A DNA stretch of 64,000 nt from an uncultured Spirochaetota bacterium (GCA_963827275.1 CAWHAA010000004.1:486847-550846); one strand, 5' to 3'. Shown: positions 3,275 through 48,886, counted from the first letter of the stretch. Notes: generated by a model not told the origin, from the sequence alone. A program made the numbers and translations.

Positions 3275-3727
3275 TTATACGATACGGGATTCGGGTAGAA
3301 TGCGTGCTATATTGGGTGGATAGCCCCAGATGAATTTCCAGTATGTGATATTATCTATCATATCTTTTATTATAACATAATTTTTATAACGATAGTTATC
3401 GGTATTAGCCTCTTTTAGAATGCTATTTAAGTATTTCGATACAGCATATGAAAGAATCAATGAAACCGACATTTTAAGCAGTTTCCTCAAATCCAGCATG
3501 TACTCATAATCATCAACCCGCAGCTGGATATGAAAAATGCGCCAGTCCTCCGGGTTGCTTCGTTCCTGGTATCTAACCATAGAGCCGAATCGTCCCGGAT
3601 CGGGAATATCATCCATAACCAGTTTTATGAGCGTAACAATTACATCCGACCGTGAAACACCCTTTAATTGTGCCGCCAGAGTGATCCTTTGTAAAGTCTC
3701 AGCATGAATATTAAGGGTTGTTTCCAT
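3275..3727 (-). CDS. hypothetical protein in AT-rich island (no recognisable motif)
   Basis: 150-aa ORF with I/K/N/Y-rich composition in a ~640-bp AT-rich segment that contrasts with the ~60% GC flanks. Confidence 0.4.
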   Translation of the reverse strand: METTLNIHAETLQRITLAAQLKGVSRSDVIVTLIKLVMDDIPDPGRFGSMVRYQERSNPEDWRIFHIQLRVDDYEYMLDLRKLLKMSVSLILSYAVSKYLNSILKEANTDNYRYKNYVIIKDMIDNITYWKFIWGYPPNIARILPESRIV

Positions 3728-21767: not shown

Positions 21768-24488
<2,721 letters not shown>

Positions 24489-25737: not shown

Positions 25738-25790
25738 TTTACTCTGACCCCTCCCGGGGATATTGAAAAGTAGAATTTTACTCTGACCCC
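25738..25790 (+). repeat. two direct copies of TTT(T)ACTCTGACCCC
   Basis: tttACTCTGACCCC 25738-25751 and ttttACTCTGACCCC 25777-25790, 30 bp upstream of the GT4 gene. Confidence 0.75.
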
Positions 25791-25820: not shown

Positions 25821-27083
25821 ATGAAGAACGTTGGATTCATATCGACAAGAATATCTGGCACTGACGGAGTAAGCCATGAGATCGAAAAATGGGCCGCCGT
25901 GCTTGAGAAGAATGGCCTGTCCTGCTCCTATTGCGCCGGGGAAGTCGATCGGCCACGGGAACGCTGTCATGTTATCGATGAAGCCCATTTCAGGCACCCG
26001 GACATCGACACTATTAACCGGAGCGTATTTGGAAAAACAATCAGGCCGGAGAAGATAACCGACCTTATCCATGTGTTATCCGCACACTTGAAAAGCGAAC
26101 TATCAAACTATATTCGGCGTTTTGATGTCGATTGTATAATAGCCGAAAATGCGCTTGCCATTCCAATGAATATCCCTTTAGGGATAGCGTTGACAGAGCT
26201 GGTTGCAGAGACCGGTATTCCGGTTATAGCCCATCACCATGACTTTGCGTGGGAGCGTGAACGATTCCTGGTCAATGCCGCTGGTGACTACTTGCAGATG
26301 TGCTTTCCGCCTGTACTGCCCTCCGTGCTCCATGTGGTAATAAATTCGCTCGCGCGGAGGTCTCTTGCGCATCGTCGGGGCGTGACAAGCACCGTTATTC
26401 CCAATACCATTGATTACGCCAATCCACCCAAACCGGCTGATCCCGGGGCAATTAAAGGGGTCAGAGTAAATGCGGGAGTGTCCGATGGTGAAATTTTTGT
26501 TCTCCAGCCCACACGCGTGGTGCCGCGCAAATGCATTGAGCGCTCAATTGACCTTGTGAGTGGACTTGCCGGCGCGGGCAAAAGGCTTGTAATCTCACAT
26601 CCCTCCGGCGATGAGGGTGATGAGTACTATACACAATTGAAGGAATACGCGAATATGCGCCAGGTAAGTCTGGTCAGCATAGAATCGGTGGTATCGCCGG
26701 GCCGGTCGGTGTCAGAGCAACGGCCGTATACCATCGGTGAGGTATATCAGGCCGCTGATCTTGTTACATATCCTTCGGCGTATGAGGGATTCGGGAACGC
26801 CTTCCTTGAGGCAATTTATTTCAGGAAGCCAATTTTAATGAATCGCTACCCGATTTTCATAGCTGACATTGAGCCAAAAGGTTTTGAGTTATGTCTTATA
26901 AATGGGTTTGTTACCGTTGATGTGATCAGGTATGTAGAGCGAATTCTTTCAGATCCGGATGCTCGTAAGAAGATGGTAGATAAAAATTATAGTATAGCGA
27001 GCGAGTGTTTTTCTTATCAAAGGCTTGAAGATCTTTTAATGGGTGTGGTGGGCTGCCTCAGACCTCGATCTCCTTGCAGATGA
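25821..27083 (+). CDS. glycosyltransferase family 4 (GT-B, Glycos_transf_1)
   Basis: C-terminal GT4 signature ...VTYPSAYEGFGNAFLEAIYFRKPIL...; 420 aa; contains an intragenic copy of GGGGTCAGAGTAAAT at 26457-26471. Confidence 0.75.
   Translation: MKNVGFISTRISGTDGVSHEIEKWAAVLEKNGLSCSYCAGEVDRPRERCHVIDEAHFRHPDIDTINRSVFGKTIRPEKITDLIHVLSAHLKSELSNYIRRFDVDCIIAENALAIPMNIPLGIALTELVAETGIPVIAHHHDFAWERERFLVNAAGDYLQMCFPPVLPSVLHVVINSLARRSLAHRRGVTSTVIPNTIDYANPPKPADPGAIKGVRVNAGVSDGEIFVLQPTRVVPRKCIERSIDLVSGLAGAGKRLVISHPSGDEGDEYYTQLKEYANMRQVSLVSIESVVSPGRSVSEQRPYTIGEVYQAADLVTYPSAYEGFGNAFLEAIYFRKPILMNRYPIFIADIEPKGFELCLINGFVTVDVIRYVERILSDPDARKKMVDKNYSIASECFSYQRLEDLLMGVVGCLRPRSPCR
26457..26471 (-). repeat. intragenic copy of the repeat core (GGGGTCAGAGTAAAT)
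   Basis: exact 15-mer shared with 34591-34605; encodes K-G-V-R-V-N in the GT4 gene. Confidence 0.7.
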
Positions 27084-27771
27084 TCATTTCCGAGTCTTCT
27101 TCCTCCGGTCGAACTCGGTAGAGTATGCCATTTCTATCTGCTATTAAACTACGCGCTTGCAAGAAATTGCGAAATTCAGATTTGACACCGCAAACCTTGA
27201 CGATGACCGCATTCGCCATCGCTGCACCCCGGACATAAATATCAAGATCACGCTTGAATTTTTCATCCGCAGATTCCTCTCTCCTTGGTGAAAAAGTAGG
27301 GGCAAATATTAGGTGAGTTCCCTGCTCGCGCATGAAATGAAAAGCATCGTCTTCAAATACATCGGCGCAGATAATCACTCCAAAAGTAATTCCATGTGCA
27401 CTGAATACCTGATATAAGTCTCCTGGTGTTATCTTGCCCACTTCAGCAAAAAAGAGTCGTTTTTTACGATAACTACCCAATAGGATGCCATTATGAAACA
27501 CAAAACAGGTATTGTAAGTTACCCCATTTGCAAGTTCTGGCATTGTCCCACCGATAACAACGGTTGACAGTTCCTTGGATAATTTTGATATTCGCTGCAA
27601 TTGACGTTTTTGGTTGTGGGGCGTTTGGTTCTGTGTGCCCAGAGCAGTGTTTACGAAAAAATATTCGGGGAAACATATAAAGTGTGGCTTGAAACTTCGA
27701 AACAGGCTGGTGTCAGAGTGAGTTATAGGGACTCCAAGCGGTTTTTGAGATATTATAATTCGAAGTTTCAT
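27058..27771 (-). CDS. carbon-nitrogen hydrolase family protein (nitrilase/amidase superfamily)
   Basis: ORF 27058-27786, probable start MKLRIIISQ; catalytic Cys context GVIICADVFED; low-GC; 3' end overlaps the convergent GT4 gene by ~26 nt. Confidence 0.7.
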   Translation of the reverse strand: MKLRIIISQKPLGVPITHSDTSLFRSFKPHFICFPEYFFVNTALGTQNQTPHNQKRQLQRISKLSKELSTVVIGGTMPELANGVTYNTCFVFHNGILLGSYRKKRLFFAEVGKITPGDLYQVFSAHGITFGVIICADVFEDDAFHFMREQGTHLIFAPTFSPRREESADEKFKRDLDIYVRGAAMANAVIVKVCGVKSEFRNFLQARSLIADRNGILYRVRPEEEDSEMIICKEIEV

Positions 27772-27839
27772 GACTACGTTTCCCATGCAACTAGTAATCT
27801 TTTATTTAATAATATCAAGAGATTTTAGTGTCAGAGTAA
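27712..27839 (-). repeat. two copies of the repeat core (GTCAGAGT / GTCAGAGTAA) downstream of the transposase gene
   Basis: GTCAGAGTg at 27712-27719 and GTCAGAGTAA at 27830-27839. Confidence 0.5.
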
Positions 27840-28002
27840 CATTATTTTAGTACTGGAATAGCATAGTAGCAAAAATATCTAGTAATCTGGGATCTATGGA
27901 CTTTAAAGATAATCAGAACTGATTTGAATTTTAAGGAGAGAAGGCTTAATAAAATAAGCTAAATATTTGTACTTCTGGAATTCCAACTGTTGCGATAACC
28001 AA

Positions 28003-28602
28003 TTACCCAAACAGGCTTTCCGGGAAGATTCGCTTTCTATACCTTTCTTCGTATTCAAGAAATTTTCCGACCCGTTCCTCGAAGGTAGCCCCCAGCTTTA
28101 CAAAATATTCATGCAGGGTGATGGTTACCGGCGGAATGAATTCCTTGCTCAAATAGCAGCGGATAGACCCATACTTGTAATCTCGGGGATCTGCGACAGT
28201 TTTGCTTTTTACCGGATTATAGGCCATATAAAGCAATATTACGAAAAACGTCGAAACCGGGTCGTCAGTAAGTTCAATAATGGTATCGCTGAAGCGCTCA
28301 TTCCAGAAGGGGCCAATCCTGCCCATGATCCGGTTATATCGCCGTGCAAATTGTGACTTGATGAACTGCATGATACGAGAAATGGACTCGCCGCCATCAA
28401 GCGTACGGATAAGAAAATGGAAATGATTGGCCATGAGGGTATAGTTGATCAGCTCAAAATGGTATTTTTCAAGCGCCAGGTCTAAGACAAAAAGCATCAA
28501 GTCTTTCATCTCATCAGAATGCATGAGGTGTTTTTTCTCGATGCAGCGTGACATGGTGTGATAGGTATGTTCCGGCAGGCAGTTCCGTTGTTTTCGCGGC
28601 AT
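28003..28602 (-). CDS. REP-associated tyrosine transposase (RAYT; IS200/IS605-like Y1 HUH transposase, TnpA_REP)
   Basis: Aligns by eye with E. coli YafM/RAYT: HuH motif YTLMANHFHFLIRT (cf. LPEHMHCIWTL), GPFWNERFSD (cf. QPRFWEHAIRN), catalytic Tyr block FVILLYMAYNPVKSK (cf. YIYINPVKHG); single gene, low GC. Confidence 0.85.
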   Translation of the reverse strand: MPRKQRNCLPEHTYHTMSRCIEKKHLMHSDEMKDLMLFVLDLALEKYHFELINYTLMANHFHFLIRTLDGGESISRIMQFIKSQFARRYNRIMGRIGPFWNERFSDTIIELTDDPVSTFFVILLYMAYNPVKSKTVADPRDYKYGSIRCYLSKEFIPPVTITLHEYFVKLGATFEERVGKFLEYEERYRKRIFPESLFG

Positions 28603-28685
28603 GGCGTCCTCCTTTGCTTGTGGGATGTCTTGCTTGCGTTTGCTGTATATACGAATGGGAGGCCGCCTTCTGGTAATAATTTTAT

Positions 28686-28700
28686 GGGGTCAGAGTAAAA
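28686..28700 (-). repeat. copy of repeat core (GGGGTCAGAGTAAAA) just upstream of the RAYT gene
   Basis: exact core match. Confidence 0.6.
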
Positions 28701-30476: not shown

Positions 30477-33400
30477 ATGAAACAAACGACCGCAACCAAA
30501 ACTGAAAAAAGCCCTTCGGGGGCATCATCACATGTGCACGGGATATACAGGCCGAAGAACAGGGTCCGGGTCGTAACCGCGACGTCTCTCTTTGATGGCC
30601 ATGACGTGGCCATCAATATGTTCAGGAGGATCCTTCAGGAAACAGGCGTTGAGGTGATTCATCTGGGTCACAACCGATCCGTCGATGAGATCGTAAGCGC
30701 AGCAATAGAAGAGGATGTGCAGGGGATTGCCGTTTCCTGTTATCAGGGCGGGCACGTCGAATTTTTCAAATATATAATCGATCTCCTGAAAGAGCGGGGG
30801 GGCCCGCATATCCGGGTCTTCGGCGGCGGGGGCGGCGTGATCGTACCGGAGGAAGCGAGCGAGCTCGAGGAATACGGCGTGGCAAAAATCTATACGCCTG
30901 AACATGGCGCGCAGATGGGCCTTCAGGGCATTATCAACCACCTTGTAAGTGAAATTGATTTTCCGATTCCGGACGCTGTCGCGACTGATATCTCTCTACT
31001 TTCATATGATAATAAAGCTGCGATCGCCCGGCTCATCACCATGGCGGAGACGGTTGATCCCCGTGGTTCTGATAATTACGCGTCGATTCGCCAGCTTGTC
31101 CGCAAGGCTGCCGGTGAAAGAAAGATGCCGGTCATCGGGATCTCCGGCACCGGTGGCGCAGGCAAGTCGTCAATAATCGACGAGATCATTGTGCGCTTTC
31201 TGCATGATTTTAGTGATCTGCGCGCGGCGGTGCTCTGCAGCGATCCTGCAAAACGCAGGAGCGGTGGTGCGCTGCTGGGCGATCGTATCCGGATGAACGC
31301 GATCACGAATCCCCGTGTATATATGCGCTCGTTTGCCGCCGGCCAATCCAATATTGATTTTTCTGAATCGCTGTCCGATGCGCTCGCCGTTGTAAGGGCG
31401 GCCGGCTTTGATCTCGCGATAGCGGAGACGGCGGGCGTGGGCCAGGGAAGCGCCGGTCTTACCGATCTCGCCGATGTGTCGGTCTACGTGATGACCAGCG
31501 AGTACGGCGCGGCATCGCAGCTCGAAAAAATCACCATGCTCGATTATGCCGATGTGGTTATCGTGAATAAATTCGAAAAAGAGGGCGCGGATGATGCCCT
31601 CCGCGACGTACGGAAACAGGTCCAGAGGAACCACAAGGCATTCGACAGGTCGCCTGATGAGATGCCGGTATTCGGTACCATCGCTTCCCGGTTTAACGAC
31701 GACGGCCTTACCGCCCTCTATCATTTTCTGCTCGATTGTATCAATGAGAAAACAGGGAGCAACCTGGTTTCGGGCCTGCCGCGACCGGATCGGCGGACAT
31801 CGTCATCCAAGACAATAATAATTCCGTCCCGTCGCACCCGCTACCTGTCAGAGATAGCCGATACGGTGCGTGACTACCATAAACGCACCGTGGAGCAGGC
31901 GGATATCGTGCGCGCCATATGGCACCTGCGGGAATCTGCGACGCGGCTGGCGGAACGGGGCGATGCCGCTGGTGCGGTTGAACGGCTTACCGAGGAAGCG
32001 GCGCGCATGGAACCGCTGATCGAAAGCGAGACAACGTATCTCCTGTACCAGTGGGACGTCATCAGGGAGGATTACCGGAAGGATGAGCTCGTGTATCTCG
32101 TGCGCGACCAGGAGGTCAGGACGCCCCTGTATTACGAGTCCCTTTCCGGCAAGAAGATCCCCAAAATCGCCCTCCCGCGTTTCACCGACCCTGGCGAGGT
32201 GTATCGCTGGATGCGCGAGGAAAATATCCCCGGCTGGTTTCCCTATACGGCGGGCGTATTCCCGTTGAAGCGGATGAACGAGGACCCCACCCGCATGTTC
32301 GCGGGCGAGGGAAACCCGGAGCGGACCAACGCGCGCTTCAAGCTCCTGTCCGCCAATTTCGCAGCGAAGCGCCTCAGCACCGCATTTGACTCGGTCACGC
32401 TCTATGGCCGTGATCCTGAGACAAGGCCGGATGTCTACGGCAAGGTGGGGACTTCCGGCGTGAGCGTGTGTACGCTTGACGATGTGAAGGTCCTCTACGG
32501 CGGGTTCGACCTTACAGCGCCCGCGACCTCGGTTTCAATGACCGTAAACGGCCCGGCGCCGATGATGCTCGCAATGTTCCTGAACGCGGCGATTGACCAG
32601 CAGGAAGAACGGTTCGCGTCTCAGACGGGGCGGCAGCCGAATGCGGAAGAGCATGCAAGGATACGCACCGATGTGCTTTCGAACGTACGTGGAACGGTGC
32701 AGGCCGATATATTAAAAGAAGACCAGGGCCAGAATACCTGTATTTTTTCTATCGACTTTGCCCTCAAGATGATGGGAGATATACAGCAGTTTTTTATTGA
32801 TAATAACGTGCGCAATCTTTACTCCGTGTCGATATCCGGCTATCATATCGCAGAGGCGGGAGCAAACCCGATCACACAGCTGGCCTTCACGCTGGCCAAC
32901 GGATTCACCTATGTGGAATACTATCTCTCGCGCGGCATGCCCATTGACAGCTTTGCGCCGAACCTCTCCTTTTTCTTCTCAAACGGCATGGACCCGGAAT
33001 ACACGGTCATCGGTCGGGTGGCGCGTCGTATATGGGCAGTTGCCATGAGGGAGAAATACCGTGCCGCGCCGCGGTCGCAGATGCTCAAATATCACATCCA
33101 GACATCAGGCCGGTCGCTTCACAGCCAGGAGATACAGTTTAACGATATCCGTACCACGCTGCAGGCACTCTGCGCGGTGTACGATAACTGCAATAGCCTC
33201 CATACCAATGCCTATGACGAGGCCATCACGACACCCAGCCGCGAATCGGTACGCCGTGCTCTGGCGATACAGCAGATCATCAACAGGGAATGGGGTCTGG
33301 CGCGGAACGAAAACCCGGAGCAGGGGAGCTTTATCGTTGAAGAGCTCACCAGTCTTGTCGAGGAAGCGGTGCTCGCGGAATTCGACCGCATCACGGAGCG

Positions 33401-33794
33401 GGGCGGGGTGCTCGGCGCGATGGAAAAGGGCTACCAGCGGAGCCAGATACAGGAAGAATCGATGCACTATGAACACCTGAAGCACTCCGGGGGGCTCCCC
33501 ATCGTGGGGGTGAACGCGTTCCTTGACGGCGAGACGTCTCATGGCGGCGAGATAGCCACCGTTGAGCTCGCTCGCGCCACCGAGGAAGAGAAGCGCTCAC
33601 AGCTCCGGCGCCTGGACGAATTTCACCGCCGCAATGCACATGAAGCGCCGCGTGCGCTGAAAAAACTTATGGAGACGGCATTGTCGGGAGGAAACGTTTT
33701 TGCAGAAATGATGAACACCGTCCGCTACTGCTCCATAGGCCAGATCACGAATGCGCTTTACTCTGTGGGCGGCCAGTACCGGAGAAGCATGTAG
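30477..33794 (+). CDS. icmF: fused isobutyryl-CoA mutase (B12-binding domain + MeaB-like GTPase + acyl-CoA mutase catalytic domain)
   Basis: 1105 aa; N-terminal cobalamin-binding DxHxxG (SLFDGHDVAINM...); P-loop GISGTGGAGKSS and MeaB/ArgK G-domain; C-terminal methylmalonyl-CoA-mutase-like TIM barrel; domain order as in IcmF. Confidence 0.9.
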   Translation: MKQTTATKTEKSPSGASSHVHGIYRPKNRVRVVTATSLFDGHDVAINMFRRILQETGVEVIHLGHNRSVDEIVSAAIEEDVQGIAVSCYQGGHVEFFKYIIDLLKERGGPHIRVFGGGGGVIVPEEASELEEYGVAKIYTPEHGAQMGLQGIINHLVSEIDFPIPDAVATDISLLSYDNKAAIARLITMAETVDPRGSDNYASIRQLVRKAAGERKMPVIGISGTGGAGKSSIIDEIIVRFLHDFSDLRAAVLCSDPAKRRSGGALLGDRIRMNAITNPRVYMRSFAAGQSNIDFSESLSDALAVVRAAGFDLAIAETAGVGQGSAGLTDLADVSVYVMTSEYGAASQLEKITMLDYADVVIVNKFEKEGADDALRDVRKQVQRNHKAFDRSPDEMPVFGTIASRFNDDGLTALYHFLLDCINEKTGSNLVSGLPRPDRRTSSSKTIIIPSRRTRYLSEIADTVRDYHKRTVEQADIVRAIWHLRESATRLAERGDAAGAVERLTEEAARMEPLIESETTYLLYQWDVIREDYRKDELVYLVRDQEVRTPLYYESLSGKKIPKIALPRFTDPGEVYRWMREENIPGWFPYTAGVFPLKRMNEDPTRMFAGEGNPERTNARFKLLSANFAAKRLSTAFDSVTLYGRDPETRPDVYGKVGTSGVSVCTLDDVKVLYGGFDLTAPATSVSMTVNGPAPMMLAMFLNAAIDQQEERFASQTGRQPNAEEHARIRTDVLSNVRGTVQADILKEDQGQNTCIFSIDFALKMMGDIQQFFIDNNVRNLYSVSISGYHIAEAGANPITQLAFTLANGFTYVEYYLSRGMPIDSFAPNLSFFFSNGMDPEYTVIGRVARRIWAVAMREKYRAAPRSQMLKYHIQTSGRSLHSQEIQFNDIRTTLQALCAVYDNCNSLHTNAYDEAITTPSRESVRRALAIQQIINREWGLARNENPEQGSFIVEELTSLVEEAVLAEFDRITERGGVLGAMEKGYQRSQIQEESMHYEHLKHSGGLPIVGVNAFLDGETSHGGEIATVELARATEEEKRSQLRRLDEFHRRNAHEAPRALKKLMETALSGGNVFAEMMNTVRYCSIGQITNALYSVGGQYRRSM

Positions 33795-33878
33795 TCATAT
33801 CCCTCTGTTTTTATGGTAAAATTCTCTTCCTGCTGTGAATTAAACTGAAGCTGGCCAGCCTGATTTGATAATAAGACT

Positions 33879-33967
33879 GCTCTGACACCTCGTTTTCAGA
33901 ATATTTTACTCTGACCCCGGTTTCCCATTTTCAATTTACTCTGACACCAAATATTTACTCTGACCCC
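33879..33967 (+). repeat. tandem array of four ACTCTGAC(C/A)CC repeat cores
   Basis: gCTCTGACACC 33879-33889; ttttACTCTGACCCC 33904-33918; tttACTCTGACACC 33935-33948; tttACTCTGACCCC 33954-33967; lies between icmF and the convergent sulfatase gene (last copy overlaps its 3' end). Confidence 0.75.
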
Positions 33968-35892
33968 AGGCCTTTCCTTCGTGGCGGTTCAGATGTAGGC
34001 CAGAGTCTGTTTGAATTCAGTATTTTCTGATTAATGTAAATATCCATGAGCCTTTTTCGCAGACGCTTCATCACTGCGGGCTTCCCTCTCCCGGCAAGAT
34101 TGTGCTCCTCCCGGGGATCGGTCGTGAGGTTAAAGAGATATTCTTTGCCGGTTTCGGAATGATGAATGTATTTCAATGGATATTCCACAATGCCAAGGAA
34201 CAGGCCATTATACGGTTGTATCAAGTATACCGGTCCTGTTTTTACGCCAGGTGACACCAAAGATTGCCCGAGAAAATGCGTTTTCACGCCTGATATGCCC
34301 GCAATGTCGAGTATGGTGGGTGCGATATCGAGCTGGGAATAGGCCTCGTTGAGGATGCGTGGCCCAATTCTGCTGTTCCATAGTATCAGCAGGGGGGTCC
34401 GGAAGACCTCATCGTAGAACCCGACTTCATTGTGCGAGATTCCATGTTCATTAATTGGAAAACTGTGATCGCCGGTGATAATTACAGCTGTGTTGGCGTG
34501 TTGCGGTCGTTTGGCTATTCCTTTCAACAGGTCTCGAAGACCCTGATCGGATAAATGGATGGAATTGGCGTAGCGCTGATCGATCGTAGTGGGGTCAGAG
34601 TAAATCAAACACTTATCTTTCGGTACGTAATCGAACCACATATGGTTCGATGTCGTTGCCAGGAGAGCGAAGACCGGCCTGCCGCCGTTCCGCTGCCTGA
34701 TGCGTTCCATCTGGCGGAGGCATAGTTTATAGAAGAGGCCGTCCTCGGGGCCCCAGCCCCATACCTGCGGGGCGTCCGCATCAGTCAAAAATTCGTAGGC
34801 GGAATGGATATGCCGGAAGCCGGCCTTTTTCATAAAGGCCCTGGTGTTATCGAAATCGAGCTCGCGGGCGGCCTGCATGAACAGTGTGTCATATCCGGCA
34901 TCGTGCAGTAGCTCCGGGAGCGCCCTGAAGGAAAGCTCGGGGAATGACGTGAAGATTTTTCCGCGAATGCTCGGTAGCACGGACAGCAAGACCGCGGCCT
35001 GTCCCTTGCATGTCTGGACGGAATTGCCGTAGAAGCGCTCGACGTAGAGGCCGCGGGGGATGAGTGAATTGAATACCGGCGTTATCTCCTTTCCCTCCGG
35101 GGACTTCTTCCTGACTACATTGGCGTTATATGATTCAACCATTACCAGGACAATATCCGGCCTGGATGATCCCCTCGGAAGGGCCGGCGACGCGTTGAAT
35201 GTTGTCAGGTACGGGTATCCGCTAACGCTGATGCCGGCCATGGGGTCCTGGAAGGGATAGCGGAGGATTCCCCGCAGGAGGCCGGTGAATTCATCATGGG
35301 TCTTGACCGGCAGCAGCAGTATCACCGCATAGAGCAGAGCGGCCACGACTGTTTTTTTCGCCGCATGCGGGTATTCTGGCGGGGATACCAGAATTTTTTT
35401 CCGCCAGTGAAGCATGAGCAGGAGTACGAGAGATATCCCGATTATGATGAAGAACCAACGGGGAAAAATTCCGATGATGGTGTACCAGGATTCCTTGTAA
35501 AAGCCGAGGGTGAAATTATCGATAATGATGGAACAGTTGAGCGGGATGTGTGTTATGAGATAGTAGGTGTGTATCATTGTAAACAGCGTTAAAAAGAGCA
35601 TGTTGATGACAAGCCGTACCGCCCGCACCCTGCTGGCCGCAAGGTTGATAAGCTGGACCGCGACAGTGGCCGTGAATATGCTGTAACAGATATACAGTGC
35701 CGATGTTATGGAGAGATCGAAAGGCCGTATGCCGTAACGCCGCTGGAATCCGTATAAAAAAAATATCATGAGGATGACTGTCAGGGTATTCATGCAGCCA
35801 AGATCCAGGGGGAGCCACTCACGTACCAGCTCGCGATATCTGCGGGCTCTCTTTGTGATTATGTCTAACGTGGTGGTATCGCTCCTTGTCAT
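33955..35892 (-). CDS. LTA-synthase/sulfatase family membrane protein (alkaline-phosphatase superfamily)
   Basis: 5 N-terminal TM helices; extracytoplasmic sulfatase domain (DIVLVMVESYNAN..., ITGDHSFPINEHG); contains intragenic repeat copy 34591-34605. Confidence 0.8.
   Translation of the reverse strand: MTRSDTTTLDIITKRARRYRELVREWLPLDLGCMNTLTVILMIFFLYGFQRRYGIRPFDLSITSALYICYSIFTATVAVQLINLAASRVRAVRLVINMLFLTLFTMIHTYYLITHIPLNCSIIIDNFTLGFYKESWYTIIGIFPRWFFIIIGISLVLLLMLHWRKKILVSPPEYPHAAKKTVVAALLYAVILLLPVKTHDEFTGLLRGILRYPFQDPMAGISVSGYPYLTTFNASPALPRGSSRPDIVLVMVESYNANVVRKKSPEGKEITPVFNSLIPRGLYVERFYGNSVQTCKGQAAVLLSVLPSIRGKIFTSFPELSFRALPELLHDAGYDTLFMQAARELDFDNTRAFMKKAGFRHIHSAYEFLTDADAPQVWGWGPEDGLFYKLCLRQMERIRQRNGGRPVFALLATTSNHMWFDYVPKDKCLIYSDPTTIDQRYANSIHLSDQGLRDLLKGIAKRPQHANTAVIITGDHSFPINEHGISHNEVGFYDEVFRTPLLILWNSRIGPRILNEAYSQLDIAPTILDIAGISGVKTHFLGQSLVSPGVKTGPVYLIQPYNGLFLGIVEYPLKYIHHSETGKEYLFNLTTDPREEHNLAGRGKPAVMKRLRKRLMDIYINQKILNSNRLWPTSEPPRRKGLGSE
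34591..34605 (-). repeat. intragenic copy of the repeat core (GGGGTCAGAGTAAAT)
   Basis: identical 15-mer to 26457-26471; encodes L-I-Y-S-D-P on the sulfatase coding strand. Confidence 0.7.
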
Positions 35893-36011
35893 GCGTATAA
35901 GTTAACATGGAATCATTGTGTCCTGTCAATAGTTTATCATGGATGCCGGTGGTTCCCGCGGGCTTAAAATTATCATTGACGGATAATGGGATGTTTTAAG
36001 ATGATCATTGA

Positions 36012-38240
36012 GTGATGGACGTGATCCGCAAAATCCGCTGTTTGAGAGGGCTTATGAAACGATTGATTTCTGCTGCTCTTCCGACCCTCCTGCTTGTTCT
36101 CTTTTTTGCGATTTTATCTGCGAATCCTGCGAGTGCCGGGCCGGTCACGCTGGATCCATCTATCGATCAGTATGTTTTTACAAAACAGGTTGAATATATC
36201 GAAGACCCGGACAGGACACTGACCATTGAAGATGTATCGCAGGCGACAGGGCAGTGGACCCGTCAAACAGAAAACGCGTTTAACTTCGGATTTACAAAAT
36301 CGGCATACTGGTTTAAATTTTCGGTGAAGAACCCCCTGGATTCCGCCATCAGCTGGTTCCTTGAAATAAATTATCCGATGCTGGATTCGATAAAGCTCTA
36401 CATCCCCCTCGAGAAAGGCGGCTTTACCCTGAAGGAAACCGGCGACCACCTGCCTTTTTCACACCGGGATGTCGCTGATAAAAATTTCATATTCCTGCTC
36501 AACGAGGAACCGGGCACCCATACGTATTACATGCACGTCGATACTACCAGTTCTGCAAATTTTTCCATGATCATGTGGTCCACGAAAGGGGACCGCAACC
36601 GGCTTACCGCCGAGCTGCCCGTCATATGGATCTATTACGGCCTTATGATGATCATGGTCTTTTATAACCTGTTTATCTTTTTTTCTGTCCGGGATATCAG
36701 TTATGTGTTTTACGTGCTCTTTATCTCGTCGTGGATACTTATGCAGCTGACCCTGAATGGTTTCGCGTTTCAGTATCTCTGGCCGAACTGGATCTGGTGG
36801 GCCAACAACTGTCTTCCATTTTTTACTTCAAACATCAATCTCTGGTCCGCTTTTTACCTGCGTTCGTACCTGCAGACCAGGGATAATCATAAAATAATCG
36901 ATAAAATAGCGCTCTATGGCATCGCGCTTCCCTCTGCTGCGATGATTCTCATATCACTCGTCGCGCCGTACCGTATAGCAATGATGGCGGCCACGATGTC
37001 ATCTCTGGTCATAACTATCTTTTATTTTACTGTGGGGACCATACTGGTGCTGCGAAAAAACCGTGCCGCGCGGTTTTATCTGATAGGTTTTTTGGCGTTA
37101 ATGATCGGCATCGTAGCATTTACCCTGAAGACCTTCGGGGTGGTGCCTTCTGTCTTTATCACCAACTGGGGCATGCAGATCGGATCGGCGGCCATGGTCT
37201 TCTTCCTGTCTCTGGGATTGGCCGACAGGATCAGCTCCATGCGTAAAAACCTGGAGGTGCTCTTCAAGGAGCAGCAGGAAAATGAAAGGCTGGCGCTCGA
37301 ACGGGCGAAGTTCCTCGAGGGTGTTGTGCGTACGGCGAACTCCATTTCCGATGAATTCACGAGGATGAGCCGGGAGCTGGACTCGGTTAGCGGGACCCTT
37401 GCCATGCTTTCTTCCGAGCAGGCGTCAAGCAGCGAGGAATTCTCGGCAACCTTCGAGGAGCTGACGGCGGCGACGGAGCATATCCATAAATCATCGGTCC
37501 GGCAGAAGGATGAGGGCGACAAGTCCAGGCACATGATTGATGAATTGAGCGGCGCCCAGAAAAACATGGTTGACGAGAGCATGAAGGTCGCGGAGAGCGT
37601 CAGCGAGATTTCGAAGTCCGCCACCAGCACCGAGGCGAGCCTCAAGCGGATGAATGAAAAGATGACGATGATCAACGCCGGGGGCAATGAAATCAGCGAA
37701 TTCGTCACGATCATCGATGACATCTCCGACAGGATCAACCTCCTCAGCCTGAACGCGGCGATAGAGGCGGCCCGTGCCGGCGAATACGGGCGGGGGTTTG
37801 CGGTGGTCGCGGACGAGATCGGGAAGCTCGCCCAGGCGACGTCCGATAACTCAAAGCAGATCGCGGAGAAGATCAGGAAGATCATCGGGGACATCGAAGA
37901 GGGTGCCACAATAGTCGGCAGCACGAAGCAATCGACCGATGTCATTTTCAGCATGCTCGGCGATATCCAGCAGCGTATCGACCAGGTCAAAAAAATCATG
38001 GAGGTTCAGTCAAGGGGAGTGCATATGGTTGTCAAGCAGACCGCCGTCACCGACGAGGTGTCCCGCGGTATTGCGGCCGCAACGACCGAGCAGATGACCT
38101 CAATGAACCAGTCCCTCAAGACGATTGAACGGCTTTCAGAAATGGCGGTTGAAGTGTCCAGGGTGAACGACAGGATAATACAGATGACCAGGACGATTAT
38201 GCAGAAATCGGACGAGCTTTCTCGCGTTGTAAACGCATAA
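36012..38240 (+). CDS. methyl-accepting chemotaxis protein with 7TMR-DISM extracellular and 7TM domains
   Basis: Signal peptide, periplasmic domain, 7 TM helices, C-terminal MCP signalling domain ...[31 protein letters not shown]... Confidence 0.85.
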
Positions 38241-38301
38241 CGAAATCCGCTCCTCCCGGCGCCGGGGTTCGGATCGATGTCAGCAGTATGCTCCGCGGTT
38301 G

Positions 38302-38685
38302 CTATTTATGGCATCCGGCGCACTGCGCCTGCTTCGGCGCCGCTGCAGCGGTCAGGTGACATTCGCCATAGCATTTCTTGTGCACGAGCTTTTCCGCCCC
38401 GGGCCCGAAGTGGCATCCCTGGTTGGAGCACTTGTCGTTGATTTTTCCTTTATGATGGCAGGTCTTGCAGGCCTTCCCCTGTGACGCGGCCTTTTTTTTA
38501 TGCGCGGAATGGTCGAATGCCACGGCCTTCTGCTGCGGGGCGGCGGATAGTTTTGTAATTACAAGGGGGGCGTTAGTTGTTACGGCCTGCTGCTCCGGTT
38601 CCTTCGGGGCCTCCTCCTTCTTGCAGGCGACCGTGAGGGCAATACACGCGGTGATGACGAAAAAAATCGGAACATACTTTTTCAT
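38302..38685 (-). CDS. cytochrome c3 family multihaem lipoprotein
   Basis: ORF 38302-38724, start MKKYVPIFF with lipobox LTVAC; haem motifs CKTCH, CSNQGCH, CYGECH, CAGCH (four, class-III spacing). Confidence 0.7.
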   Translation of the reverse strand: MKKYVPIFFVITACIALTVACKKEEAPKEPEQQAVTTNAPLVITKLSAAPQQKAVAFDHSAHKKKAASQGKACKTCHHKGKINDKCSNQGCHFGPGAEKLVHKKCYGECHLTAAAAPKQAQCAGCHK

Positions 38686-43307: not shown

Positions 43308-43439
43308 CCGATAGTTATCGGTACTGTTTAAGTATTAATTTACTCTGACCCTGCGACGTCACACATTAATTCCGATAGTTATCGGTAATAAAGTTACTCT
43401 GACCCCGCAATCACATGCAAGAATCCCGATAGTTATCGG
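43308..43439 (+). repeat. composite repeat array: 3 x CCGATAGTTATCGG(TA) palindrome interleaved with 2 x TT(T)ACTCTGACCC(C)
   Basis: palindromes at 43308-43321, 43372-43385, 43426-43439; cores at 43339-43351, 43394-43406; spacer 43407-43425 (gcaatcacatgcaag...) recurs at 48698-48715. Confidence 0.8.
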
Positions 43440-43499
43440 TAAAAAGGCAGAAAACGCTGGTTCTATCTTCCCGGTCTGTCCCGCTCCACCGACCGCAAT

Positions 43500-48682: not shown

Positions 48683-48729
48683 TTACTCTGACTCCCGCAA
48701 TCACCTGCAATGATACCGATAGTTATCGG
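48683..48729 (+). repeat. composite repeat unit TTTACTCTGACTCCC-N18-CCGATAGTTATCGG
   Basis: 5 nt after the antiporter stop; near-identical to the unit at 43394-43439. Confidence 0.75.
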
Positions 48730-48886
48730 TAAGAAAAGCAGCAGTACTGTCATAAACCTGATTGTTTCGAATAAAATGTCGGTTATTTGGGACAGTTATA
48801 AAATACTTCTTGAAAATTCACCTTATACGCTGACCATCACCCCTGTCATTAAGAATCCATCAGACGGCCACGGCCGCGGAGAAAGC

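Follow-up and report, generated by a model that had tools for sequence, protein, structure and literature searches.

A direct M1 repeat array between icmF and a sulfatase gene in an uncultured Spirochaetota bacterium and its association with a RAYT/TIRYT-type Y1 transposase gene

The convergent icmF–sulfatase spacer and its repeat array

The window analysed here, the whole 64-kb stretch of DNA from an uncultured Spirochaetota bacterium, contains an array of short repeats, referred to as M1, in the spacer between icmF and a sulfatase gene. As originally predicted, this spacer is convergent, with icmF on the + strand and the sulfatase gene on the − strand. The product of the former carries the Pfam B12-binding, MeaB and MM_CoA_mutase domains and was therefore identified as the isobutyryl-CoA mutase IcmF, the name borne by its homologs; the same domains ruled out the type VI secretion IcmF as an identity for this ORF, and an exact-protein look-up with the window IcmF returned no record. 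The features of this region are the following:

30477–33794, + strand: icmF, fused isobutyryl-CoA mutase/MeaB GTPase
33879–33889, + strand: M1 array copy 1, GCTCTGACACC, A-type, one mismatch (position 1, G instead of A)
33908–33918, + strand: M1 array copy 2, C-type, core ACTCTGACCCC; extended form at 33906–33918, TTACTCTGACCCC
33938–33948, + strand: M1 array copy 3, A-type, core ACTCTGACACC; extended form at 33936–33948, TTACTCTGACACC
33957–33967, + strand: M1 array copy 4, C-type, core ACTCTGACCCC; extended form at 33955–33967, TTACTCTGACCCC
33955–35892, − strand: membrane sulfatase/LtaS-like gene with a Sulfatase domain, convergent with icmF

The prediction of four same-strand cores at 33879–33967 between these two genes was borne out, all of them being located on the + strand. 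The array core can be written as (TT)ACTCTGACMCC and is exact in three of the four copies, the remaining one having G for A. Copies 2–4 reach further 5′ to (T)TTAC, reading (T)TTACTCTGAC. The expected periodicity was recovered, with start-to-start distances of 29, 30 and 19 nt, and the array starts 85 nt and ends 173 nt beyond the icmF stop codon. Its last copy indeed runs into the 3′ end of the sulfatase ORF, the complement of copy 4 forming the codons for GSE and the TAA stop; M1 clusters are able to extend or terminate ORFs, and here the sulfatase stop codon falls within the repeat. The chance model consisted of 100 dinucleotide-preserving shuffles (mean 1.05 ± 1.0, maximum 4), and the core with at most one mismatch had 19 matches in the 64-kb window against 1.05 expected, an enrichment over shuffled sequence which confirmed that the array is far beyond chance.

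It had also been proposed that the array was not a simple hairpin terminator, and the structural analyses agreed with this. Neither an intrinsic terminator (a G+C-rich stem-loop with a T-run) nor a sigma-70-like promoter pattern was found in 33600–34200, and folding of the array compared with shuffles gave values of z near zero on both strands (+0.56 and −0.77 as RNA; +0.67 and +0.86 as DNA). Likewise, no Rfam covariance-model match at E ≤ 1 was obtained in 20000–50000.

Conservation of the array at orthologous positions was verified within the species and faded with distance. A same-species Logan contig (L209; IcmF 99% and DNA 98% identity) keeps the same gene order and the four copies, copy 1 reading ACTCTGACACC there, and in another Logan contig (L210; IcmF 89% identity) icmF is followed by two M1 copies, again direct but differing in their spacers. 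No M1 was found after icmF in relatives with 77–83% IcmF identity, in which the downstream sequence is unrelated. The absence concerns their icmF loci only: around the Y1 transposase gene described below, M1 is present in these MAGs too (L207, L204). In the L210 contig, the sulfatase and 7TMR-DISM methyl-accepting chemotaxis genes are missing between icmF and the cytochrome c3 gene (window 33955–38240 vs L210 4245–4887), and the left border of this indel is the M1 array. M1 copies as cassette borders of the sulfatase-MCP block were considered and rejected, M1 being present at the left border only, with none at 38240–38302 or 35893–36011.

The L210 contig begins with M1 upstream of the sigma gene, where the window likewise has M1. 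Both Logan contigs end a few nucleotides past the M1 upstream of this ECF sigma gene (L209, positions 1–25; L210, positions 1–35), the end of L209 lying 7 nt beyond the M1 copy. These contig ends suggest that M1 breaks short-read assemblies and that the Y1-sigma-icmF arrangement is common to these close relatives.

M1 and M2 as dispersed repeats

M1 (TTTACTCTGACCCC) is the most over-represented k-mer of the window and its commonest 9- to 14-mer, GGGTCAGAGTA and neighbouring words being the commonest 11- to 14-mers. Its consensus reads TTTACTCTGACCCC / GGGGTCAGAGTAAA, and the fuller consensus comprises a T-run followed by TTACTCTGAC[C/A]C[C/T]. Besides the array, M1 occurs at about ten sites of the window, which include spacers of all three kinds (convergent, tandem and divergent) and, in occasional cases, genes, a distribution that contradicts the idea of a locus-specific regulatory array; its density is approximately 0.2 per kb. 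The sites concerned, some of which also carry a second repeat, M2, include:

2344–2356, − strand: solo M1, its GACCCC end forming the 5′ arm of a 9-bp hairpin, then a T-run
21768–21823, + strand: two-copy direct M1 array (copies at 21768 and 21811, spacing 43), with an M2 palindrome after each copy
25739–25790, + strand: two-copy direct M1 array (copies at 25739 and 25778, spacing 39)
26457–26469, − strand: exact M1 13-mer inside a glycosyltransferase ORF, antisense, coding KGVRVN
34591–34603, − strand: exact M1 13-mer inside the sulfatase gene, sense strand, coding IYSDPT
43340–43445, + strand: two tandem composite units of 52–54 nt (at 43340 and 43394), each with M1, spacer and M2 hairpin
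48683–48735, + strand: third composite M1-spacer-M2 unit at a separate locus, with the M1 variant ACTCTGACTCC

A pooled sample of 285 kb, composed of the window and eleven loci from related Spirochaetota MAGs, revealed that 44 of 57 M1 copies (77%) were intergenic, while intergenic DNA amounted to 12%. These 44 copies were spread over 14 convergent, 19 tandem and 11 divergent spacers, and all 19 pairs of neighbouring M1 copies at most 120 nt apart were direct, i.e. head-to-tail, with none inverted. The proposal that the array could represent a REP cluster was thereby sustained in the sense that it is a cluster of a dispersed REP-like family, with its excess over chance in the window and its mostly intergenic location. 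Searching the searchable literature with the M1 array sequence in both orientations retrieved matches to mouse primers only.

Two sub-variants of M1, the C-type (..GACCCN, 72%) and the A-type (..GACACY, 28%), recur in several genomes, and they alternate in four of the five arrays having at least three copies, including that of the window. Because of this recurrence and alternation, the pattern was regarded as a recurrent feature and not as random drift; thus, the alternation of CCCC and CACC variants noticed at first was real, and its interpretation as simple divergence of the copies was not upheld. The alternation hints at array growth by a two-copy module or at differing roles of the variants. 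Alternating A-type (GACAC) and C-type (GACCC) arrays were located in four genomes, at window 33879–33967, L202 13850–13977, L204 16471–16677 and L207 3605–3681.

An exact 13-nt M1 within coding sequence would be expected by chance about 0.002 times per window, and two were seen (34591–34603 and 26457–26469). The one within the sulfatase gene, on the − strand, sits in the sulfatase domain and is also found in the same-species contig L209; its origin as an in-frame insertion was rejected, the alignment to 3LXQ revealing a length difference of at most 3 residues and no clear insertion. A replication-strand bias was rejected as well, with M1 loci distributed as 5 (+) vs 4 (−), a small sample, while the GC skew of the window is uniformly positive.

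Concerning secondary structure, M1 is not palindromic and no inverted-repeat structure was found within it, nor were conserved base pairs observed across six aligned upstream regions of the Y1 gene, M1 copies included. A stem with M1 as its loop was discarded as a candidate: the mean best stem was 3.55 vs 2.76 in controls for metagenome copies, and such a stem was absent from most window copies. A hairpin formed from the GACCCC end of M1 was similarly dismissed: the copy at 2344 has it and those at 26457 and 25741 have it in part, but no downstream motif was enriched over 61 copies.

Most M1 copies are followed by unrelated sequence. Each composite unit is a 52-nt module in which M1 is followed by the spacer GCAATCACATGCAAGAAT and then by the palindrome CCGATAGTTATCGGTAA. 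The three units (43340, 43394 and 48683), which occupy two loci 5 kb apart, align over precisely this extent, starting at the TTAC of M1 and stopping where the palindrome ends, with no alignment beyond. M2 (ACCGATAACTATCGGT) is itself a second dispersed repeat, with a 6-bp stem and a 4-nt loop, found in the window at 3390–3401, 21791–21802, 21834–21845, 43309–43320, 43373–43384, 43427–43438 and 48717–48728, and elsewhere at L001 19365–19505, L003 22380–22557 and L005 19484–19613. Across 292 kb of Spirochaetota loci M2 was counted 28 times, in 13 cases at most 70 nt from M1; it also forms arrays of its own and is conserved in relatives whose corresponding sites lack M1. Either a REP-like family distinct from M1 or an operator could account for it. 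In another Spirochaetes MAG (L009 20480–20640), the units GGGGTCTGACCCC and CTCTGACCTTTAATT are densely arrayed; they are the palindromic relative of M1, and the same form flanks a Rhodospirillum rubrum plasmid Y1 gene.

The Y1 transposase gene and its M1 flanks

The window carries one copy of a Y1 transposase gene, surrounded by M1 on the strand of the gene:

28003–28602, − strand: Y1/HUH tyrosine transposase of the RAYT/TIRYT type, 199 aa, Pfam Y1_Tnp, 5 kb from the array
28686–28698, − strand: M1 upstream of Y1, on the gene's strand, 94 nt before the start codon, preceded by a T-run
27827–27839, − strand: M1 downstream of Y1, TTACTCTGACACT, on the gene's strand, 164 nt past the stop
27709–27721, − strand: M1-like sequence further downstream of Y1, TCACTCTGACACC, on the gene's strand, approximately 280 nt past the stop

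The Y1 protein presents the HuH motif as H60-F-H62 and the tyrosine motif as Y125-x3-N129-P130, which are invariant or nearly so across 55 homologs. The NCBIfam REP_Tyr_transpos (RayT) model aligned with its whole length (E = 2e-20), with a score of 73.2 bits that falls under the 80-bit equivalog cut-off, while the NCBIfam IS200 model scored 23 bits against a cut-off of 55. The AF2 (AlphaFold) model (pLDDT 94.4) had as its top PDB match in Foldseek 4ER8 (E = 7e-8), ahead of ISDra2 and IS608 TnpA; 4ER8 is the structure of TnpA-REP, the REP-associated transposase of E. coli, in complex with a REP hairpin. C-terminal residues 147–198 are helical in the AF2 model, and no Pfam domain beyond Y1_Tnp was found in the protein, its C-terminal part being without a match; for subclass 2.1 of these enzymes, discussed below, an HTH/DnaA_C-like extension at the C-terminus has been described. 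The homologs are 199-aa proteins of Spirochaetota MAGs, almost always with one contig per cluster, and some of them bear the JGI name RayT. About 200 nt of markedly A+T-rich sequence lie between the Y1 stop and the downstream M1 (window 27790–28000); A+T-rich downstream stretches occur at other Y1 loci too, although these cannot be aligned.

Five further Y1 loci were compared (L201, L202, L204, L205 and L207, with homologs of 88, 72, 66, 63 and 62% identity, respectively). In all six loci, including that of the window, M1 is placed 76–97 nt before the Y1 ATG on the strand of the gene, and the five further loci also harbor one or two copies on this strand some 150–270 nt downstream. M1 was the top k-mer in four of these five 20-kb loci, L205 being the exception. 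Homology between the upstream regions starts at the T-run and M1 and extends to a conserved ATTCGTATA box. The genes adjacent to Y1 differ in five of the six genomes, whereas sigma-TetR-icmF is syntenic in all relatives. A conserved box of the form CCCATTCGTATA(T/C)A was noted in window 28603–28660 and in the aligned regions of the other five loci (L201, L202, L204, L205 and L207). It is situated some 40 nt beyond the upstream M1, leaving approximately 45 nt to the Y1 start codon, and may represent the −10 region of the Y1 gene or a second recognition element.

The association was also observed outside the Spirochaetota. A metagenome scan for two M1 cores 8–38 nt apart gave at least 120 contigs, selected by the double M1 alone and ranging from 38 to 72% G+C among the matches listed; in six of 120, again among the matches listed (642 kb in total for the six), a Y1 homolog was flanked by M1. 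These homologs have 220–250 aa and are 27–29% identical to the window Y1, and the adjoining M1 copies are mostly inverted. Moreover, plasmid Y1 genes detected by tblastn and annotated as 'transposase' are flanked by GCTCTGACCCC in Iodobacter fluviatilis and Skermanella, by GGTCTGACCCC in R. rubrum and by AATCTGTCCCC in P. aeruginosa.

These genes agree with what has been published on TIRYT genes, in which the terminal inverted repeats have GGGGWSAS in common and in some cases make up dispersed and clustered families (Di Nocera et al. 2013, PMC3733652). TIRYTs correspond to TnpA-Y1 subclass 2.1, beside whose genes hairpin-type REPs were searched for and none was found (Quentin et al. 2018, PMC6006769), and this subclass is RAYT Group 1 of Bertels et al. 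2017, for which 16-mer counts gave only a weak association (PMC5581495). The reverse complement of the C-type M1, GGGGTCAG-AGTAA, fits GGGGWSAS, and that of the A-type, GGTGTCAG, has one mismatch to it. In common with TIRtrons and TIRYTs, the Spirochaetota system has a low-copy RAYT-like Y1 gene with a flanking motif at tens of nucleotides, a G-rich end (GGGG-T-C-A-G), and a motif that is also dispersed and clustered elsewhere in the genome. However, inverted M1-type flanks were present in the distant homologs only (those of the metagenome contigs and of the Iodobacter, Skermanella, R. rubrum and P. aeruginosa plasmids), the flanks being direct in six of six Spirochaetota loci; in addition, the Spirochaetota Y1 protein is shorter (199 aa), and M1, at its density, appears denser than the 'moderately abundant' published families.

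Like the repeats of REP/BIME/REPIN systems, M1 is short, highly abundant and extragenic, gathers in spacers, particularly at 3′ ends, and has occasional intragenic copies; the Y1 gene is again single-copy and embedded among its own repeats (a 'REPtron'), and the Y1 fold is nearest to E. coli TnpA-REP (4ER8). M1 differs from those repeats in that it is non-palindromic, its consensus being without the GTAG/GTGG foot that was sought in it and without the hairpin, and in that its clusters are head-to-tail instead of alternating in orientation; the RayT score under the equivalog cut-off is a further difference from REP/RAYT systems. The likeness to the IS200/IS605 elements IS608 and ISDra2 lies in the Y1/HUH catalytic core, in both ends being on the same strand and not inverted, and in the TTAC at the start of M1, TTAC being the target and cleavage tetranucleotide of IS608. 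Unlike those elements, the M1 loci are without subterminal hairpins, the Y1 gene is apparently single-copy, and its tyrosine motif is of the RAYT type (Y-x3-NP). The characterized Y1 enzymes IS608, ISDra2 and E. coli TnpA-REP recognize hairpins and, to our knowledge, a hairpin is required by every characterized Y1 transposase. The M1-Y1 system thus works like REP/BIME-RAYT and TIRtron systems, but without a palindrome, a GTAG foot, alternating orientation or, in this clade, inverted termini, and it was classed as a variant and not as a member of either because the defining features of each fail.

Interpretation of the array

The array is very probably one local grouping of a dispersed repeat that is associated with Y1. 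The reading preferred here, with its mechanism included, is that the array represents a local accumulation of M1, a genome-wide and mostly intergenic repeat which would be the cognate motif of the RAYT/TIRYT-type Y1 transposase; a probability of roughly 0.6 is assigned to it. We infer, by association throughout, that the Y1 enzyme acts on M1. It would bind M1 and nick it on one DNA strand, and segments bounded by M1 would be moved or duplicated by strand-specific excision and re-inserted beside existing M1 copies. Strand-specific insertion at a site carried by the element itself would produce head-to-tail arrays with unrelated spacers, and the same mode of insertion would explain the Y1 gene lying between direct M1 copies and its changing neighbourhood. 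The icmF-sulfatase spacer would be a permissive convergent site where M1 accumulated, and any effects on the 3′ ends of icmF and the sulfatase gene would be secondary. Taken alone, the specific mechanism of M1-Y1 mobility is tentative, its odds falling somewhat short of even: no pair of an empty and a filled M1 site was found, and the balance of M1 between strands relative to the GC skew speaks against it, in that a mechanism using lagging-strand ssDNA might leave a strand bias. Also against it are the lack of a hairpin in M1, the unrelated sequence following most M1 copies, so that no common mobile unit emerges from them, and the presence of M1 at only the left border of the sulfatase-MCP block missing from L210. 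As for the suggestion that the array could bind a protein, this is plausible, the likely partner being the Y1 transposase encoded 5 kb away, whereas its role as a dedicated regulatory site was not supported.

A host transcription factor or nucleoid-associated protein unrelated to Y1 could also recognize M1, the array then serving icmF or the sulfatase gene as a cooperative multi-site operator or as a structural element. Same-strand repeats at 29–30 and 19 nt, near whole helical turns, would suit such a protein, as would a linear, non-palindromic motif without single-strand structure, and the fixed M1 at 76–97 nt before the Y1 start, beside the ATTCGTATA box, could be an operator or promoter element. 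This explanation is nevertheless improbable, considering that 14 of the 44 intergenic M1 copies lie in promoter-less convergent spacers, with no fixed relation to gene starts, that the array is absent after icmF at 77–83% identity though the sigma-TetR-icmF context is kept, and that M1 travels with Y1 across phyla, which a lineage-specific regulator would not explain. Growth of M1 arrays by local slippage or unequal recombination only, with Y1 merely located in a repeat-rich spacer, is decidedly improbable. The similar spacers within some arrays (25741 and 25780; 33879 and 33908) are what tandem duplication predicts, and the arrays are strictly direct, but slippage cannot seed dozens of unlinked spacers with M1 or bring one 52-nt unit to two loci separated by 5 kb. 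It also leaves unexplained both the similar spacing of M1 around Y1 in six genomes, despite the differing neighbours, and the flanked distant Y1 homologs in Proteobacteria.

A function at the RNA level, with M1 as a 3′ UTR signal for termination, processing or stability of convergent transcripts, is very unlikely. The M1 at 2344 is joined to a hairpin and a T-run, and E. coli REPs are reported as 3′UTR elements (bioRxiv 10.64898/2026.03.23.713779). Within the window, M1 has the sense orientation with respect to the upstream gene in 4/4 informative tandem spacers; co-orientation with transcription was, however, rejected in the larger 285-kb sample, where 12 co-directional and 7 opposite copies did not differ significantly, and the spacer of the array had neither a terminator-like site, nor folding better than shuffles, nor an Rfam match, within the ranges given above. 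Finally, a short motif at about 0.2 per kb, on both strands and kept across related genomes, would suit a role in DNA uptake during natural transformation. Uptake signals, though, are specific to a lineage and are not tied to a gene in this way, whereas the same core occurs beside Y1 genes in contigs of 38–72% G+C (among the matches listed) and in several proteobacterial classes; the strong intergenic bias and the tight head-to-tail arrays also argue against this function, which is extremely unlikely.

A more far-reaching version of the preferred reading holds that a domesticated Y1 recognizes a linear motif of 11–14 nt without a hairpin, that integron-like, strand-specific capture and excision take place between direct M1 sites, and that M1 is the missing substrate of RAYT Group 1, the largest of these groups and the least understood. 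It is unlikely as a whole; if true, the captured segments would be the Y1 gene itself, the M1-M2 units and short spacers, this would be hairpin-independent, cassette-type HUH recombination, and one motif reused across phyla would be the long-missing substrate of RAYT Group 1, subclass 2.1.

With the array read as a local pile-up of a dispersed, Y1-associated repeat, it requires no special regulatory explanation and is one of many transposase-linked repeat clusters. The findings suggest that RAYT Group 1 is partnered by a short linear motif, (A/G)CTCTGACCCC, whose conservation extends from Spirochaetota to Proteobacteria, and that in one clade this motif switched from inverted to strictly direct copies and attained REP-like density. 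RAYT Group 1, or subclass 2.1, exceeds all other RAYT groups in size and in breadth of distribution and is apparently an uncharacterized enzyme class in the literature, for which M1 would provide a concrete, testable oligonucleotide substrate.
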